Source of the DNA: Candidatus Hermodarchaeota archaeon
GTDB lineage: Archaea > Asgardarchaeota > Hermodarchaeia > Hermodarchaeales > Hermodarchaeaceae
Assembly (NCBI GenBank): GCA_016839805.1
Contig: JAEOTO010000006.1
Span: 72,751 to 136,750, forward strand
DNA length: 64,000 nt
Direction: 5' to 3'
Positions within the stretch are counted from its first letter, which is position 1, and every line of letters begins with the position of its first letter. The translations under genes were made by a program, and so were the position numbers. Shown piece after piece: positions 11,923 to 23,982 of this stretch. The notes under the pieces were generated by a model. That model was given only the letters and a program-made list of their open reading frames with translations, did no database searches and was not told where the DNA came from.

Positions 11923-12813
11923 ATTATCCATAACGCAATACTTTTCACCATCAGCCCTCGCACAGACGAAGTCGGACTCCAAGCCAACGTCATCTTCCGC
12001 AAACAATACTGGCGCGTCGCCCTCAACGACGACATGATCCGCGAATTCCTCCGCGCCTACAAAGAATTCATGAGCCACGTCCAAAGTACCGACATCCCCA
12101 CCCTCCCCATCCACATCCAAGGCGCCAAATACATCTTCACCAACATCGAAGACCTCCTCCTCGTCTTCATCAGCCACATGCAAGACGAAGACAACCGCGT
12201 CGCCGAAAAAGTCAAAACCGCCCTCCGCATGCTCGTCGGCAAATACGGCACCGAACACATCAAAGAACTCGGCAACAACGACACCGCCGAACCCATCGAA
12301 GACCTCATTGACAACTACATCATGAGCAAACTCAAAGTCAGCCTCGTCGGCGAAGGCGGCGTCGGCAAAACCACCCTCCTCCGCCTCCTCAAAGGCAGCG
12401 CCCCACCCACCGAATACGTCCCCACCATCGCTCTCAGCATCGAACAAATCGAAGCCACCCGCTACGGAACCTACTCAATAATTTTATGGGACTTCGCAGG
12501 ACAAGAGCGGTTTCGCCGGCTCTGGACCATTTATTTCAGGGGCTCAGACATCGTATTCATCATCACCGACTCCACCCTCAACAACGTCATTGCCACAAAA
12601 GAAATCCTAGATGTCATCCGAAAAGACGCACCGGGTGTCCCTGTCTGGGCGATTGCCAACAAACAAGACCTCGAAGGCGCCCTCAGCCCCGAACTCGTCG
12701 AACGCATCCTCGGCATCCCCGCCTTCGGCATGGTCGCCATCGACCAAACCCGCAAAGAAGAAATGCTCCAAATTTTGCTCGATGCCGTCGATCGCTACAT
12801 CGGGACGGAATAA
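11923..12813 (+). CDS. longin-like domain + Arf-like small GTPase fusion
   Basis: G1 GEGGVGKTT, G2 YVPTI, G3 WDFAGQERFR, G4 NKQD. Frame is open upstream of track ATG 12034 to a TAG at 11887; IIHNAILF...KQYW aligns with MIHNVFIM...RQYW of the paralog at 17120, so the start is placed at ATT 11923. Confidence 0.85.
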   Translation: MIHNAILFTISPRTDEVGLQANVIFRKQYWRVALNDDMIREFLRAYKEFMSHVQSTDIPTLPIHIQGAKYIFTNIEDLLLVFISHMQDEDNRVAEKVKTALRMLVGKYGTEHIKELGNNDTAEPIEDLIDNYIMSKLKVSLVGEGGVGKTTLLRLLKGSAPPTEYVPTIALSIEQIEATRYGTYSIILWDFAGQERFRRLWTIYFRGSDIVFIITDSTLNNVIATKEILDVIRKDAPGVPVWAIANKQDLEGALSPELVERILGIPAFGMVAIDQTRKEEMLQILLDAVDRYIGTE

Positions 12814-15368: not shown

Positions 15369-15544
15369 ATAGATTCTAAGTATTTTTCTCCGATCCACTA
15401 TTTGCCGTTTTATTAACATTAACTAGGTAGGTTTATTTTTCATCATAAAACTGAGCGAAGTTAACACTAGGTAGCCGAAACCAATACATACAAATCATGC
15501 TTGAATTGTAACGGATTCCACTTACTACTAGGGTGTGCTTTAAA

Positions 15545-15916
15545 ATACCTCGAGTAATAGATTTTGAAATTCCAGCTGATGATATTGAACGTATTACGCA
15601 GTTTTATACGACAGTGTTTGGCTGGAAGATCGAAAAGTGGCCAGGACCAGTAGATCACTGGTTTTTAATTACCGGTGATGATTCGGAGCTAGGAATTAAT
15701 GGTTCCTTTGCAATGCGTGAGGATTTTCCCGAAGGTACTACTGTGAATGTGATTGGTGTGGATGATGTGGACAAGTATGCAGCGTTAGTGGAGGCGCATG
15801 GGGGTCAATTGGTTGGTGACAAGATTGTGATTCCTGGTGTAGGTTGTTATCGCTATTTCAAAGATACCGAAGGGAATCTAATGGGAATGATGCAATAAGA
15901 TTCTTCTTCAAGATAA
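15545..15916 (+). pseudogene. VOC/glyoxalase-family gene, possibly decaying
   Basis: PRVIDFEIPADD...FGWKIEKW...GING...YFKDTEGN. The expected Met codon is ATA (15545) and TAA at 15896 precedes GAT TCT TCT TCA AGA TAA. Confidence 0.55.
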
Positions 15917-16078
15917 TCAGCCAAAAAGTGACATTTTCGGATTCAGTATCTCGGAATGAATGCACCTAATCCGCTATAAGTGCAAAAACCTTTTCTGCGC
16001 CGTTTCTTAACGTTGGTTGAAGCCAAGACATTGAACTTGATTTGGTCTACACAATTCCAGGCTAGAAGGTGAGTTATC

Positions 16079-17098
16079 ATCCCTCGGGGGCTCGTATTAA
16101 GTCATTGGGATACTAAGGAAGGATTAGAAATTTTAGCGAAATTTCCGACCTCCCTGGACTTCGATGTTGAACATCTATCCATGATGTTTTACAGCTGTGC
16201 CCTAGAAGAGCCTGGAACCGTTTTTCAAGTATTTCCAACTAAAGATGTGACAGAAAGGGCAGCAATCACCTGTACACGGACCATCCGAGATGGAGTCGAA
16301 GACGACTTCTGTATCACCGCGTTGCTCACTTCCGAAGAAGAGGGATCTGCTTATGAAGCAATCCTCAACTCTACTCTAAAACGAATTTTAAATGCGAAAA
16401 GTGATTCTCCCAAACGTTCACGCCGCTATCGACAAATTCTCTCAGATAGCTATCGCAAAATTGAACGGCGGGGTGGTTCACGTGACCGCTCATTGTGTCC
16501 CTACAAATATGAACGACCAGTCAAGGGTGATAAACTCACCTCCTATTGCCGTGTCGTGAAAAAACAATGCTATCTCACCATTTACGAAATGTCGGGTTAT
16601 CCCCAATGTCCCCGGTATATTCGGCGTGAACGGCAAATCCAACTCGCTAATGCCCGACGATTAGTACGTGCTGGCATCAACCGTATTCTCGAAGAATACG
16701 ATCAAGAACGACAAAAGTCTAAAAAGCATAAACCAGGAGCCTGGAGCGAACCGGTTCACGCCATCCTCGAGAGGCTATTCGCCATTCTCTCAGTTTCTCC
16801 TGAAACTGAAAACTACTCCCACCGTATTGTTGAACATGTTGGCAAAGAAGGGTTTTTCCAGGGGCATCCTCGTCCAATTATAGCCGCATCAATTGCTTAT
16901 TATAGTGCCAAACAGACCGGTGATTCCTTACCCGAAAACGATATAATCGAACTTGTGGGATGTTCCCGTACTTCCCTACGTCGAAATTACAGGGAACTCC
17001 GAAACCTCCTCGGTTCGGACGATAAAAAACTCCCGCAGCATAAACGACGTCAGCGTCGCACATCAAGACGAGAAAAAGCCGCTACTCGTGCAGAATAA
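16079..17098 (+). CDS. longin/uDENN-like + Cys cluster + TFIIB-cyclin-like fusion protein
   Basis: Frame open upstream of ATG 16181 to TGA 16070: IPRGLVLSHWDTKEGLEILAKFP matches MPRGLSVCRWDDKVGLRIVGVYP of ORF 18768. C-terminus GHPRPIIAASIAYYSAKQTG...IIELVGCSRTSLRRNYREL resembles the second TFIIB cyclin repeat. Confidence 0.75.
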   Translation: MPRGLVLSHWDTKEGLEILAKFPTSLDFDVEHLSMMFYSCALEEPGTVFQVFPTKDVTERAAITCTRTIRDGVEDDFCITALLTSEEEGSAYEAILNSTLKRILNAKSDSPKRSRRYRQILSDSYRKIERRGGSRDRSLCPYKYERPVKGDKLTSYCRVVKKQCYLTIYEMSGYPQCPRYIRRERQIQLANARRLVRAGINRILEEYDQERQKSKKHKPGAWSEPVHAILERLFAILSVSPETENYSHRIVEHVGKEGFFQGHPRPIIAASIAYYSAKQTGDSLPENDIIELVGCSRTSLRRNYRELRNLLGSDDKKLPQHKRRQRRTSRREKAATRAE

Positions 17099-17119
17099 AA
17101 CACAGGAGAATTAACTCGC

Positions 17120-17989
17120 ATGATTCACAACGTCTTCATCATGACCCGCGAAGGACGCATGGCCTTCCACCGTCAATACTGGTCCGTCGATATCACCACC
17201 GAAGATCGACAAGAATTCGTCGCCACTTACAAACACTTCGAAAAAGACCTCGGAGCCACCGTCGACCTCCCCATACATGTTAAAAACAACAAATTCATCT
17301 ACACCGATGCTGGCACTCACCTCCTCCTCGTTTTCGCCGTTGACATCTCCGACGAAGACGAAAAAATCCGAGAACTCCTCAAAAAAACTCGCGAACTCCT
17401 CATCGACAAATACGGTCACGAAATCGACGCCTACATCCAAAAACCCGCTCCCCTAGGCCAAGCCTTCCAAGGCTTCGAAAAAGAACTCGACAGCGTCATC
17501 GTCACCATGCTCAAAATCTGCCTCCTTGGTCAAGGTGGCGTCGGCAAATCCACCATGCTCAAACTACTAACCGCCGACAGCATCCCCGGCGAATACTACC
17601 CCACCATCGCCGTCGACATCGAAACCCTCCAAGGCGTGCGCTTTGGCCCCTACGAACTCGCCGTCTGGGACTTCGCAGGACAAGACCGCTTCCGCTCCCT
17701 CTGGAACTACTACCTCCGGAACGCAGACGCCGTCTTACTCGTCACCGATTCCACCTTGAAAAATGTCTTAGAAACCCGTGATATTTTAGAAATCGTCCGC
17801 AAGAATGCACCCGCCTGCATTGCCTGGGCCATTGCCAACAAACAAGACCTCCCCGGCGCCCTCGCCCCCAAACTCGTCCAACGCATCCTCGGCGTCCAAG
17901 CCTACGGCCTCGTCGCCATCGACCCTCGCTATCGCGAAACCCTCTACAAAATCATCCTCGGCGCCGTCGCTGAAGCCACCACCGATTAA
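17120..17989 (+). CDS. longin-like domain + Arf-like small GTPase fusion
   Basis: MIHNVFIMTREG longin-type start; GQGGVGKST, YYPTI, WDFAGQDRFR, NKQDL. Confidence 0.9.
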   Translation: MIHNVFIMTREGRMAFHRQYWSVDITTEDRQEFVATYKHFEKDLGATVDLPIHVKNNKFIYTDAGTHLLLVFAVDISDEDEKIRELLKKTRELLIDKYGHEIDAYIQKPAPLGQAFQGFEKELDSVIVTMLKICLLGQGGVGKSTMLKLLTADSIPGEYYPTIAVDIETLQGVRFGPYELAVWDFAGQDRFRSLWNYYLRNADAVLLVTDSTLKNVLETRDILEIVRKNAPACIAWAIANKQDLPGALAPKLVQRILGVQAYGLVAIDPRYRETLYKIILGAVAEATTD

Positions 17990-17997
17990 ACAGTGAA

Positions 17998-18531
17998 TTA
18001 TCCCTTTTTTAGCTGGTTTCGTTTTAATTGGATACCTACCATAGGAATTATGGTGATAGTTCCCATTAAAAGAAATACGGCTGCAGATAAAACATATGGA
18101 GTTAGTAACATCAGGAGGGCTCCGGTCACAAAGACCATTATAATGATCAGCATGGCTGCGATCCAAAACCCCGGGAGTTCATGCTTGGACACATACTGCA
18201 TTCGCCATAACGCCCAAACCAGATGAACCACGGCAAACATGACAAACCACCCTAGAATATAATCCAACCACGGAATCACATCCATCGGTAACCATCCATA
18301 CGCAACCCATGAATACGGGCTCAACAAAATAAAAGCTCCAGATACAAGAGCCCCTCCAATCCATGTAGCTAGAGCCAACGGCACAAACAACCATTTACTC
18401 CACCTTTCCACCTCCCTCCCGCCCAACGTCGGTCGAAGTAACCAATTAACCCACAAAGTAAACCCCCAACTCCCAAGTAAAATACAAACAAATGGAAGAA
18501 AGAACGTTAAACCCGGAATCACATTCAACAT
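17998..18531 (-). CDS. multi-pass membrane protein
   Basis: 177 aa, about 5 hydrophobic segments, AGGAG upstream. Confidence 0.75.
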   Translation of the reverse strand: MLNVIPGLTFFLPFVCILLGSWGFTLWVNWLLRPTLGGREVERWSKWLFVPLALATWIGGALVSGAFILLSPYSWVAYGWLPMDVIPWLDYILGWFVMFAVVHLVWALWRMQYVSKHELPGFWIAAMLIIIMVFVTGALLMLLTPYVLSAAVFLLMGTITIIPMVGIQLKRNQLKKG

Positions 18532-18767
18532 CTCCTGAAACCAATTTCTATTCCTTCATTCAAATATCCGTTGGTGTCGACAATTCAACCTAGTAAAACA
18601 GTTCTTATCCCGTTTAGATAAAGAAAGCAGCAACGAATATACACGAAACGGCAACGACGACAAACAAGTTAAATACGGGAAATCCGATAGTCAAAACGAA
18701 GTGCCAATAGGTCACTTTAAGTAATAAAGCTACAGGAAACTTTTAACCAAACGGGAGGCTAAAAGAA

Positions 18768-20345
18768 TTGCCACGTGGTTTATCAGTCTGCAGGTGGGAC
18801 GATAAAGTTGGCCTGCGTATTGTGGGTGTGTACCCGCGGAACCTAGAGGTTTCTGAGGATGATATGTTACGTGTTTTTACGGCGCACGCTATGGGTAAGC
18901 CGGAAGCTGGTTTTCTCACTATGACTCTTGAAGGAACGAACCTGGCGGTAGCGTCTTTTTACACTGGCATTCTCCGTGGGCGTGATCAGTTTTGTATTAT
19001 GATGTTTATGGATTTGGATGAAGAACCGCGGAGTTTTGAAGAGGGGTTGACGCTTGCGTCGAGTGAGATTGTGGAGAATATTGGTGAGCCGGAGTTTGTT
19101 GAGTATCTGGGTGAAGTGTTTGAGAAGCTGAAGCGGATGGTGGAGCTGTCCGTGGAGCAGCGGCTTGCTAAGGTGTTTGTGGATCAGGAAACGCGGTTGT
19201 TGATGCATAAGTTGGCTCGTGGTGGTATTTCCGCAGAAGAGCTCCGGGAATGGCTTGAGTTACAGACAGGGAAGCATTACCCCGATTTAGGGCTAGTAAC
19301 TCTGCCTTTGTTACGAAGTGGACTAGTGGAAGAGGATTGGATTAACGCGGTGTCAGACAACTGTGTCTTTCTAGTAAACGATTTGTTGGGTGCACGGTTT
19401 CCGCCAGAGCAGGTGATTAAACTTGCTAAAGGTGGCGGGTTAAACAAGGAGCAATACAACGAATTAGAAACGCGTGTGAAGAGTTTCTTTGAGGGTTATC
19501 AGTGGACTGAAGAAGATACGATTATTATTGGTCAGTTGCTGCTAGATCCGGATATTTATGACGTGACGAAGACGTTACGGCGGAAAATTGCGCATAAATC
19601 CGAGTTGGCGGGAGTGGTCGAAAAGGAAGCATCATTGGATAATGTGCTTCGACGTCTAGAGCAGGTACAAGTGATTACGAAATTTGGTGAAAATGCTGTT
19701 GACGTAGCTGCTAACGACGATCCGTTGATTGTGTTAATGGCGGATGTACACTTTGAGTCTTTCTTCCCGGAATTTCTAGTATTGCGTATTCAGGAACGGT
19801 TAGAGGCTAAGGATATTCATCCGGATATTGCGAAGCGGCATCTAGAGTTGCTTAGTGAAATGTATATGCGTATGCGAGAGAAGATGAAAGAACGCAAGAA
19901 GCGAAAGAAGGAAGAGGAAGAAGAGGAACTTCCTGAAATCGAAGCTGAAATGGTTCACCCGCCCGAAGTCGCTGAGGAGGAACCTCTAGAAACCGCTGAA
20001 ATGCCTCCACTTGACGAAAAAGAAGCGAAACGCATTCGAAAAGAGGAGGAGAAAGCACGTAAGGAAGAGGAAAAACGTCTAAAAGTCGAGGAGAAGAAGC
20101 GGAAGAAGGAAGAGGCGCAAAAGAAGAAGGAAGAGGAGAAGCAGAAGAAAGAGGAAGAGAAGCGTCGCAAGGAAGAGGAGAAGCAGAAGAAGGAAGAGGC
20201 GCAAAAGAAGAAGGAAGAGGAGAAGCAGAAGAAAGAGGAAGAGAAGCGTCGCAAGGAAGAGGAGAAGCAGAAGAAAAAGGAAAAAGAGAAGAAGCAAAAA
20301 GAGGAAAAAAAGAAAGAAAAGGAACCTGAAGCTGAGGCTACCTAA
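18768..20345 (+). CDS. uDENN/longin-like protein with E/K-rich single-alpha-helix tail
   Basis: N-terminal RWDDKVG..I...YP motif as in uDENN/NPRL-type longins; possible wHTH segments; C-terminal KKEEEKQ heptads; TTG after GGAGG. Confidence 0.75.
   Translation: MPRGLSVCRWDDKVGLRIVGVYPRNLEVSEDDMLRVFTAHAMGKPEAGFLTMTLEGTNLAVASFYTGILRGRDQFCIMMFMDLDEEPRSFEEGLTLASSEIVENIGEPEFVEYLGEVFEKLKRMVELSVEQRLAKVFVDQETRLLMHKLARGGISAEELREWLELQTGKHYPDLGLVTLPLLRSGLVEEDWINAVSDNCVFLVNDLLGARFPPEQVIKLAKGGGLNKEQYNELETRVKSFFEGYQWTEEDTIIIGQLLLDPDIYDVTKTLRRKIAHKSELAGVVEKEASLDNVLRRLEQVQVITKFGENAVDVAANDDPLIVLMADVHFESFFPEFLVLRIQERLEAKDIHPDIAKRHLELLSEMYMRMREKMKERKKRKKEEEEEELPEIEAEMVHPPEVAEEEPLETAEMPPLDEKEAKRIRKEEEKARKEEEKRLKVEEKKRKKEEAQKKKEEEKQKKEEEKRRKEEEKQKKEEAQKKKEEEKQKKEEEKRRKEEEKQKKKEKEKKQKEEKKKEKEPEAEAT
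20103..20270 (+). repeat. two exact 84-bp tandem copies (KKEEAQK KKEEEKQ KKEEEKR RKEEEKQ)
   Basis: 20103-20186 equals 20187-20270; built from degenerate 21-bp units. Confidence 0.9.
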
Positions 20346-22567: not shown

Positions 22568-23982
22568 CTTGTTTGCAAGTTCTCACTTTTCAAGGCGGGA
22601 TTAAATTGACCCAAGACCAGCAGACTGAAAAACAACGAATACGGTCATATCCTTAGAATGCGCCCGCTGCCACTCACCCGGAAAATTCGCATCTTTCCCA
22701 CACCCCAACAAGAATACGTTCTGTGGGCCCTATCCGAGAAATGCCGTCTTCTCTACAACTTTGCCTTGGTTGAACGACAGCAATATTGGGAAGCCAACCG
22801 GACGAAACCACCCGAGGCGCGCACTTATATAACCTACATAAAGCAGCAAAATGACCTTCCAACCATCAAAGAACAGTATCCCGAATACGCCTGGGTTTAT
22901 TCCAAGGTTCTCCAGATGGTCTTACGACGCTTGGATGCCGACTACAAGTCCTTCTATGCCCGCTGGAACAATGGTGATCACCACGCACGTCCACCCCGTT
23001 TCAAAGGCAAGCAGTATTTCACCACCCTTTGCTACAACCAATCGGGATTTACCATTGACATAGAAAATAAGCGGATCCGCCTCTCCCACAATCACCCCTC
23101 CGGTGTGGAACTCCTATTTGACCTACCATGGCTAACAAAAATTACAGGCAAGGTCAAACAGGTAGAACTCTTTCAGGATCGGCGACGTAGGTGGTTCGTA
23201 GCTATCACTACTGACGAGACGGTACCTGCCTATGTGGACAACGGGTTATACCAAGCAATCGATTTGGGCATCGTTAATCTGGTCACCGCCGTTAACCTCC
23301 ACGGCAAGTTCGTGCAGATTCGGAATCGTCGCCCTGACCGCTATTGGCGGTCAAAGATTCGGGAGGTGCAATCGAAACGCGACCATTGTAAACAATTTAG
23401 CAAAAAATGGTACTGGTATACTGTCAAATTACAAAAGATGCAACGCAAACTGACCAATCAGTTGCGCGACTTCCAACACAAAATCTCTAAGTGCATCGTG
23501 GAAAATACCCGGGCCAATACACTTGTTCTCGGTGCTCTGGACATCAAAGCAATGGCGCGAAAGAAAAAAATCATAGCTAGTCCACGAGTAATTAAGGCCT
23601 ATAGGACTTTGAACCATTCGCTGCAGAATACAGGGTTCTTGGGGCGCTTCGCCGAATTCTTGACCTACAAGGCACAGAAAGTAGGGAAAAGAGTGATAAG
23701 AATTGACGAAGCGTACACCACGAAAACTTGTTGTGTCTGTGGTAAGATCCGAGATCGGCAATTGTCTGAGCGCCGTATTCAGTGCGATTGTGGAACCCCT
23801 CTTGACCGTGACCAGAACGCGGCGGTCAACATCATGGTACGGTTCCTATCGCAGCAACCCCCTGTGAACGGGGAGCCATTACAAACTTTCTTGAATGGCT
23901 TGCATCGACACACAGCCTTACCCCACCTCCACCGGGTAACGGACTCGATGGAAGTTCCTGCATTAATGCAGGGATAGTTCAC
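22566..23982 (+). mobile_element. IS200/IS605-family TnpB-only (IS1341-like) element
   Basis: Degenerate left hairpin (CAAGTTCTCACTTTTCAAGGCGGGATTAAATTG), tnpB, right hairpin GAAGTTCCTGCATTAATGCAGGGATAGTTCAC; no tnpA. Confidence 0.85.
22658..23977 (+). CDS. tnpB: RNA-guided endonuclease TnpB
   Basis: KIRIFPT..Q, PRFK, RuvC-I AIDLG, DEAYTTKTCCVCG...CDCG Zn finger, RuvC-III DRDQNAAVNI. Confidence 0.95.
   Translation: MRPLPLTRKIRIFPTPQQEYVLWALSEKCRLLYNFALVERQQYWEANRTKPPEARTYITYIKQQNDLPTIKEQYPEYAWVYSKVLQMVLRRLDADYKSFYARWNNGDHHARPPRFKGKQYFTTLCYNQSGFTIDIENKRIRLSHNHPSGVELLFDLPWLTKITGKVKQVELFQDRRRRWFVAITTDETVPAYVDNGLYQAIDLGIVNLVTAVNLHGKFVQIRNRRPDRYWRSKIREVQSKRDHCKQFSKKWYWYTVKLQKMQRKLTNQLRDFQHKISKCIVENTRANTLVLGALDIKAMARKKKIIASPRVIKAYRTLNHSLQNTGFLGRFAEFLTYKAQKVGKRVIRIDEAYTTKTCCVCGKIRDRQLSERRIQCDCGTPLDRDQNAAVNIMVRFLSQQPPVNGEPLQTFLNGLHRHTALPHLHRVTDSMEVPALMQG

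Follow-up and report, generated by a model that had tools for sequence, protein, structure and literature searches.

A longin domain joined to a TFIIB-type cyclin repeat in an Asgard archaeal protein encoded beside a longin-GTPase gene

Does a single protein couple a small GTPase to the transcription machinery in an Asgard archaeon? The question is raised by a gene, here called X, in a 64,000-nucleotide (nt) window of Candidatus Hermodarchaeota archaeon (the whole stretch of DNA that was analysed, G000:C26:72751-136750, from an Asgard genome of 2.3 Mb and 87% completeness). X stands in front of a gene for a longin-GTPase (G1), near a gene for a paralogue of its own N-terminal domain (N) and downstream of a second longin-GTPase gene (G2); all coordinates are collected in Table 1. 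A first-pass annotation, made from the letters of the window alone, had read X as a longin/uDENN domain followed by a TFIIB-like segment and had proposed that a GTPase might control it. We compared 20 orthologous loci, i.e. the window, 18 genomes of the same family and one metagenome contig (the NCBI assembly L003 duplicates L024 and stands outside the 20). The outcome is solid as regards architecture and synteny: X is a real hybrid of 339 amino acids (aa).

Architecture of the fusion protein

Whole-genome searches recovered a full-length X orthologue from 19/19 genomes of the window's GTDB family, which comprises two genera, and the X family is present in further assemblies besides. Identity within the family ranges from 52 to 94% for X and from 75 to 97% for N, so that N is far more conserved. 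The structure of X was modelled with AlphaFold2 on a 30-sequence alignment, with moderate confidence (mean predicted local distance difference test, pLDDT, of 77.7). In this model the N-terminal domain has the order bbabbbaa (b, strand; a, helix) around a five-stranded sheet, with strands at residues 4-11, 15-22, 47-52, 61-70 and 73-82 and helices at 30-39, 89-105 and 113-131. When the model was compared with 48,161 chains by VIA-align, residues 1-136 matched a Lokiarchaeal longin (8yqg_B; Z 13.9, root-mean-square deviation (rmsd) 3.1, 133 residues aligned) and the longin domain matched NPRL2 (8fw5_B; Z 12.6), the next matches being longins of Npr2/3, FNIP2, Lst4, VAMP7 and TRAPP. Foldseek returned FLCN, NPRL2/3, Lst4 and DENND1, and the ESM Atlas rows for X held NPRL2, C9orf72 and SMCR8 clusters together with archaeal TFIIB clusters. 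The expectation that the N-terminus would model as a longin fold was thus borne out, and so was the alignment with N that had been made by eye: BLASTP of the two N-domains gave E 3e-9 (24% identity over 130 aa, from residue 1 of the paralogue), and hhalign of the two longins gave a probability of 99.4% (E 5.7e-22, 124 columns from residue 1).

The label 'uDENN' did not survive. The longin of X is better described as one of the NPRL2/FLCN/C9orf72 class, and a DENN module (central DENN, dDENN) is absent from both X and N, the DENND1 matches spanning the longin only. The loop between b1 and b2 of X carries W10-D11-x3-G15, with the spacing of W33-D34...G38-P39 in C9orf72, where W33-D34 has been described as essential (PMC12290439, a survey of 2025). 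WDxKxG was present in 20/20 X orthologues, a count to be read with the caveat that WDxxxG was part of the regular expression that located them; in the N family, too, the equivalents of W10, D11, K13 and G15 are conserved to 90% or more. Within X, R60 is invariant and R67 at least 90% conserved, and N has Leu at the position of R60.

Behind the longin, a linker modelled as disordered (RRGGSRD, residues 133-138) leads to a small domain in which C140, C157, C164 and C177, spaced C-x16-C-x6-C-x12-C, are invariant in 30 members of the X family, as the four-cysteine cluster noticed at first sight had suggested. This domain is modelled as short beta-hairpins (residues 140-180, pLDDT 63-72) and probably binds metal. 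Neither Pfam nor NCBIfam nor the Atlas held a match for it, and the fold searches barely covered it; feature searches of the Protein Atlas with the whole of X and with residues 132-215 likewise gave no usable match.

The C-terminal half of X is related to TFIIB and its archaeal form TFB, as had been claimed, and four lines of evidence agree on this. phmmer was run exhaustively against 1.8 billion representatives, and its only matches outside the family were nine proteins bearing PF00382 (E 3e-6 to 3e-4). The Pfam TFIIB profile (PF00382) matched 24/30 members of the X family (best E 4.7e-6), the window's own copy missing it at E 0.1, below the Pfam threshold. hhalign against TFB repeats gave a probability of 98.6% (E 5e-16). 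Finally, the repeat, which forms a five-helix bundle in the model (residues 223-313), was aligned by VIA-align over residues 214-315 with human TFIIB (Z 13.5, rmsd 2.2, 101 aligned) and with Pyrococcus woesei TFB (Z 13.1, rmsd 1.7, 91 aligned), followed by yeast TFIIB, Brf1 and then cyclins, and Foldseek agreed on the TFIIB/TFB likeness. No stretch of the protein is more conserved than the recognition helix of the helix-turn-helix (HTH), G294-L307 (10/14 positions invariant), which in the HMMER alignment falls on the TFB helix ...VTVRNRYKEL.

The more specific claim that this segment corresponds to cyclin repeat 2 fared unevenly. It is favoured by HMMER, in which the genome's five TFB-like open reading frames (ORFs) gave 12.6-23.1 bits for repeat 2 and -1.6 to 7.0 bits for repeat 1, and by NCBIfam PRK00423, whose alignment with X falls at positions 224-306 of 312, i.e. 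in repeat 2. On the other side, hhalign returned a tie (87.0 versus 86.3); once the long helix of X was included, a solution with linker plus repeat 1 was slightly better, and in one hhalign solution the C-terminal part of that helix aligns with the TFB segment that precedes repeat 1. Structural alignments to eukaryotic TFIIB also select repeat 1.

X shares with TFB more than the repeat. A Cys-rich domain and a helix precede it, in the order of ribbon, linker and core, and the HTH helix is similar to the recognition helix of TFB. It differs from TFB/TFIIB in the N-terminal longin, in having one repeat rather than two in tandem, and in having no recognisable B-reader; the CxxC...CxxC zinc ribbon (PF08271) gave no match, there being no CxxC in X and hence no CxxC knuckle in its four-cysteine domain. 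By these sequence features X is a derivative of a TFB domain and not a member of the TFB family. We also looked for X fused into longer proteins (598-2000 aa) and found no example, though this negative is weak evidence. Apart from X, at least four or five ORFs of the genome are TFB-like and have a pair of cyclin repeats (L007, C26:1-1946; L008, C21; L009, C42; L010, C27); two of these are in L008, and one TFB-like ORF, 264 aa long when trimmed to its first Met, has no zinc ribbon in that form.

We found no description of the longin-TFB architecture; the first-pass reader had likewise known of none. Longin-GTPase fusions have been described in Asgard genomes (PMC10933270), as have longins of the FLCN/SMCR8 type (PMC12290439) and NPRL2-like longin families with fusions to two-component signalling domains (Liu et al., 10.1101/2020.10.19.343400). 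The FLCN/SMCR8-type and NPRL2-like longins come from the phylum of X and share its longin class; the words TFIIB, cyclin and HTH are absent from the report of Liu et al., and our literature search found no paper that combines longin, TFIIB and archaea.

Where translation of X begins

The frame of X is open from 16073, immediately after TGA 16070-72, to its stop codon at 17096-98, so that the upstream extension to 16079 proposed in the first-pass annotation stands. The first ATG in this frame is 16181 (Met35). Upstream of it the frame reads V-I-I-PRGLVLSHWDTKEGLEILAKFPTSLDFDVEHLS and, in the window locus, contains no ATG, GTG or TTG; read from ATC 16079, the product has 339 aa and the N-terminus (I/M)PRGLVLSHWDTKEGL. 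Database proteins of the X family begin at various internal positions, with lengths of 284-333 aa, and three are labelled 'cyclin family protein' by NCBI. Standard gene calling does therefore remove the first longin strands, as had been foreseen: in the model, the extension contributes b1-b2 and part of helix a1.

Comparison of the 20 loci points to ATC 16079 as the start. ATC or ATT (ATY) immediately precedes a conserved P-R/Q-G-L (PRGL/PQGL) in 20/20, and lies 6 nt past an invariant GGTGA/GGTGT in every locus except L001, which carries one extra codon (ATT at 6 nt, ATC before the Pro at 12 nt). At 14 loci GGTGA ends in a TGA that closes the reading frame three codons ahead of ATY; the two codons in between are free to vary and ATY alone is conserved. 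No in-frame ATG, GTG or TTG lies between the upstream stop and ATY in 18/20 loci, and in the two exceptions, L014 and L001, an ATG abuts the Shine-Dalgarno (SD) sequence. The paralogues of X have ATG or TTG exactly where X has ATY, with the N-termini MP[RK]G (N family) and MPVA (a wider family of ~380 aa). Genome-wide, the canonical codons ATG, GTG and TTG account for 118/233 candidate starts that follow GGTG[AT] and have an in-frame stop a short way upstream, and a 6-nt spacer is the commonest among them (76/118); the aEF1A leader of P. abyssi similarly has GGUGA, 5 nt and then AUG (PMC6237735).

The extension, kept in 20/20 orthologous loci, varies in the manner of a coding region. The ratio of non-synonymous to synonymous variation (pN/pS) was 0.35 over the 33 codons after ATY, compared with 0.354 over the next 18 codons, and third positions varied more (0.40) than second positions (0.08). 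As judged from these alignments, conservation of the extension exceeds chance, and the codons dropped by gene callers evolve as coding sequence. We conclude that translation of X begins at 16079 on a near-cognate codon, because ATY is conserved, its spacing from the SD is the modal one, a canonical alternative is lacking in 18/20 loci, and the extension is under coding constraint; we infer that the first residue is Met. It is scarcely credible that the present annotation is right, i.e. that the gene encodes a 305-aa 'cyclin family protein' from ATG 16181 and that the upstream likeness is an untranslated leader or a decayed remnant. The lack of a canonical upstream start and the choice of internal starts by gene callers would fit this, but the protein-level conservation, the longin strands encoded by the extension and the optimal spacing of ATY speak against it, as does the absence of the internal Met from the second genus, which reads AQIFY at that place. 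A frameshift from the out-of-frame GTG within the SD was also considered and rejected, since that frame ends after two codons in the GGTGT orthologues.

In the genome-wide scan, ATC stood behind GGTG[AT] in six cases including X, no more often than some ordinary codons, so that AUY initiation is no general habit of this genome. G2 apparently also starts at such a codon: it reads ATT ATC CAT AAC where G1 reads ATG ATT CAC AAC, and no in-frame canonical start lies upstream of this ATT in the window. The ATT of G2 is kept 6 nt past GGTGA/GGTGT in L001 (4989-5876), L025, L027 and L028, and L026 has ACG ATT at the start position. With X, the module thus holds two genes with apparent AUY starts. X resembles bacterial infC, the gene for IF3, and other genes with near-cognate AUU/AUC starts in having a conserved AUY start behind a good SD in a regulatory gene; the near-cognate start of infC makes for low or regulated translation. 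It differs from infC in being archaeal, and no autoregulatory logic is known for it. Archaeal start-codon discrimination is the work of aIF1 rather than IF3 (PMC6237735).

Three blocks upstream of the start (A-C) are conserved across the genus. Block A is a candidate gene-specific non-coding element, be it promoter, operator or leader. Within block B, ACCUUUU (15988-15994) is complementary to the SD region of X; RNAalifold pairs it with GGAAGGU over 7 bp, both sites being invariant and the covariation support hence zero. RNAalifold found nothing in the X leader beyond this pairing, and we claim no RNA switch; an Rfam scan of 15700-16300 matched no family. None of the blocks has further copies in the genome, so that they are neither a regulon motif nor a generic promoter element. 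Together, the blocks could be a promoter, an operator or a leader that sequesters the SD, and a weak start combined with a conserved, locus-specific leader/promoter of ~140 nt suggests tight control of X dosage. Further upstream, at 15533-15898 (+), lies a glyoxalase/VOC-like ORF.

The GTPase and NPRL2-like neighbours

G1 follows X directly in 20/20 loci. In the window it starts 21 nt past the X stop on the same strand, as originally reported, and in the second genus the two genes abut or overlap by 1 nt. X and G1 are very probably co-transcribed. Both the retention of the extension and the gene neighbourhood, on which the first proposal had been staked, are therefore general among the orthologues. 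The GTPase motifs of G1 are intact (GQGGVGKS P-loop, DFAGQ, NKQD), and its G domain matches Pfam Arf (72.1 bits; cut-off 22.3) and Roc (72 bits) and, among PDB chains, Arf1 (E 3e-18). Since the catalytic Gln and a Ras-like P-loop are retained, a GTPase-activating protein (GAP) that supplies an arginine is plausible for G1. G2 lies 3.3 kb upstream of X in the window; in the second genus and in L001 it is the gene immediately before X.

The longin domains of X, N and G1 fall into two groups, which upholds only part of the original picture. Those of X and N are homologous, whereas that of G1 is sigma-adaptin-like (Clat_adaptor_s in 15/19 members, best E 6.2e-5; AP-1 sigma, E 0.025), and hhalign detected no similarity between it and the longins of X and N. 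Because the G1 longin is of a different class, longin-longin pairing of the paralogue type with the GTPase is not implied by homology, and N is at least as good a longin partner for X as G1 is. A complex prediction for the X longin (1-135), full-length G1 and the N longin (1-128), run without controls, scored 0.21 and 0.00 against a mark of 0.32 and thus speaks neither for binding nor against it.

These observations bear on one rival explanation, that X is primarily a TFB-derived regulator, i.e. a decoy or co-factor for TBP, the B recognition element (BRE) or RNA polymerase in the manner of truncated TFB paralogues, with the longin as a dimerisation or sensor domain and the GTPase genes adjacent merely through co-regulation. 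It would accommodate the TFB homology of the repeat, the lack of similarity between the X and G1 longins, and the multiplicity of TFB-like genes, which speaks for active TFB diversification in this genome. We consider it quite improbable: G1 follows X without exception, abutting or overlapping it in one genus, two lineages have G2 on the opposite flank of X, and the longin class of X is known only as a GTPase platform (PMC12290439).

ORF 18768, the gene for N, begins MPRGLSVCRWDDKVGL. Its product was modelled with a pLDDT of 88.6 and a predicted TM-score (pTM) of 0.77. Over its whole length it matches NPRL2, Npr2 and NPRL3 in Foldseek (9o5a_H, 9h4q_T, 7t3b_C; E 3e-4 to 8e-4, ~380-460 columns), with low TM-scores of 0.22-0.25 to NPRL2-type chains, the domains being arranged differently. 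VIA-align gave Z 13.4 and 12.4 for the longin and ~8 for the winged helices, against winged HTH domains of the ArsR type. As modelled, N is NPRL2-like (longin plus two winged helices) and not a DENN protein, and its layout recalls NPRL2 throughout. The core family of N, of ~365 aa, is widespread in Asgard genomes. N lies within ~2 kb of X on the same contig in at least 13 genomes, a variable gene sometimes intervening between X/G1 and N. The clustering as such is of interest, as Tran et al. found GTPase genes of MK-D1 generally not in operons with longin genes (PMC10933270), unlike the X locus, where the two kinds of gene occur together.

Several further features were noted in this part of the window. 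The C-terminal ~140 residues of N (19923-20342, +) are internally repetitive and Lys/Glu-rich, with KKEEEKQKKEEEKRRKEEE units; this tail differs in length and sequence among orthologues, and the wider ~380-aa family is without it. Between G1 and N lies an ORF for a hydrophobic, apparently multi-pass membrane protein of 177 aa (17998-18531, -); the same slot holds a CoA-transferase gene in L001 and nothing in L003. Beyond N, an ORF of 439 aa (22658-23977, +) resembles IS200/IS605 TnpB/OrfB, with a C-terminal CxxC...CxC cluster, and lies just downstream of a conserved neighbourhood of RNase HII, OB-fold and DNA-ligase genes.

Table 1. Positions of X, its parts, its leader and the neighbouring genes, numbered from the first letter of the window.
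Feature	Position	Strand	Description or basis
Block A (TTCAGTATCTCGGAATGAA)	15942..15960	+	almost unchanged across 15 genomes of the genus; sequence occurs exactly once in the 2.3-Mb genome
Block B (GTGCAAAAACCTTTTCTG)	15980..15997	+	core invariant in 15 genomes
Block C (AACNTTGNTTGAAGCCAAG)	16009..16027	+	near-invariant in 15 genomes of the genus
Shine-Dalgarno-like AGAAGGTGA	16064..16072	+	TGA 16070-72 within it is the in-frame stop that closes the frame; GGTGA/GGTGT in all orthologous loci
Fusion gene X	16079..17098	+	339 aa plus stop
Inferred X start codon, ATC	16079..16081	+	near-cognate, presumably read as Met; comparison of 20 loci
X residues 1-131, longin of NPRL2/FLCN/C9orf72 class	16079..16471	+	model topology, VIA-align, Foldseek, Atlas
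X residues 138-180, small four-Cys domain (all four invariant), no CxxC knuckles	16490..16618	+	invariant columns
X residues 178-213, long basic helix joining four-Cys domain to cyclin repeat	16610..16717	+	model
X residues 214-315, single TFIIB/TFB-type cyclin repeat	16718..17023	+	profile and structure matches
X residues 316-339, disordered Lys/Arg-rich tail	17024..17095	+	pLDDT <50
G1, 289-aa longin-GTPase	17120..17989	+	residues 1-125 sigma-adaptin-like longin; 130-289 Arf/Rag/Ras-like GTPase
G2, second longin-GTPase	11923..12813	+	43% identical to G1
N, 525-aa paralogue	18768..20345	+	longin 1-126, winged helices 129-211 and 248-332, long helix, Lys/Glu-rich tail ~386-525

A possible path from GTPase to transcription

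What, then, might X do? Fusion of a longin to a TFB domain argues that both halves act together, and the invariant adjacency of X and G1 argues that X acts with G1. The reading that we tentatively favour, at a probability of about 0.4, is that the longin of X regulates or reads the state of G1/G2 and that the TFB half relays this to transcription. The longin, alone or as a heterodimer with N, would contact the G domain of G1 and/or G2 and act there as a GAP-type regulator or as a reader of the nucleotide state. The TFB-derived half would pass this state on to the transcription machinery, by binding BRE-like DNA, by binding TBP or by competing with TFB, and the weak start codon and conserved leader would keep X scarce or regulated. 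The binding partners of X, its role as GAP or effector, its DNA binding and its metal are what we infer under this reading.

The closest known parallels are the complexes NPRL2/NPRL3 (in GATOR1), FLCN-FNIP and C9orf72-SMCR8. The N-terminal longin of X is of the same structural class, the WDxxxG of its b1-b2 loop recalls C9orf72, and the encoding of two paralogous longins, X and N, together with small GTPases echoes the heterodimer-plus-GTPase logic of GATOR1. The four-cysteine domain and TFIIB repeat that make up the second half of X occur in none of these proteins, and the partner GTPases G1 and G2 differ from the Rags in having N-terminal longins rather than a C-terminal roadblock.

The same parallels invite a rival explanation, in which X is purely a GTPase-regulator subunit for G1/G2 (a GAP, a guanine nucleotide exchange factor or a scaffold), the four-cysteine domain and repeat standing in for the winged-helix scaffold of N and making protein contacts, with no link to DNA or transcription. 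N has winged-helix domains where X has the four-cysteine domain and repeat, the C-terminal domains of GATOR1 are structural, and the operon partners of X are all GTPase-related. Cyclin folds, moreover, are generic protein-binding modules, and cyclins, Rb and ORC6 gave Z 9-12 with the X model. Yet the repeat matches TFIIB/TFB specifically and not cyclins in general, and its recognition helix is not only the best-conserved part of X but retains its Arg residues, with a basic tail behind it. This explanation, the chief rival, keeps considerable weight, although on balance it seems to us somewhat less likely than not.

A number of points weigh against the favoured path from G1/G2 through X to transcription. 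The C-terminal domains of NPRL2 and NPRL3 are protein-protein scaffolds, so that a domain of HTH type in this context need not bind DNA. Lacking a second repeat and a CxxC ribbon, X cannot act as a complete TFB, and the methods are split as to whether its repeat corresponds to TFB repeat 1 or repeat 2. As to a GAP role, the GP motif next to W-D is specific to GAP-type longins and common to a class of Asgard longins (PMC12290439). In its strict form it is absent here, G15-L16 standing in X, G-L in N, and G-A or G-I in the wider family. R60 is, by its conservation, no more than a candidate arginine finger. The Pfam families NPR2, NPR3, Folliculin and C9orf72-like, which mark the eukaryotic complexes, matched neither X nor N up to E 1. 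Finally, the fusion is restricted to one family with two genera, no X orthologue having been found in any other family among 400 Asgard genomes, and promiscuous domain shuffling is a known trait of Asgard genomes (10.1101/2020.10.19.343400).

A narrower form of the favoured path would make X a relay in one polypeptide, in which the longin reads or sets the state of G1 and the TFB repeat occupies BRE/TBP sites, thereby re-programming promoter use. We regard this form as unlikely. If true, archaea would have a direct counterpart of the eukaryotic path that leads from a nutrient GTPase via a longin GAP to a transcription factor, and G1 would be the first Asgard GTPase paired with its regulators by operon structure.

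Two consequences are independent of the function of X. Its conserved AUC/AUU start, apparent in G2 as well, is a clear example, from comparative data, of archaeal initiation at a near-cognate codon, and automatic annotation, by shortening X, masks its longin domain. Small GTPases and longin/roadblock proteins are numerous in Asgard archaea, and which regulator serves which GTPase is mostly unassigned; such pairs are hard to assign because their genes usually lie outside operons (PMC10933270). X and G1, with N nearby and G2 close or directly upstream, nominate specific partners that can be assayed. Collectively, the fusion and the adjacent GTPase gene suggest a link between GTPase signalling and transcription, and if X functions as a relay, GTPase signalling would be wired directly to basal transcription in the lineage closest to eukaryotes.

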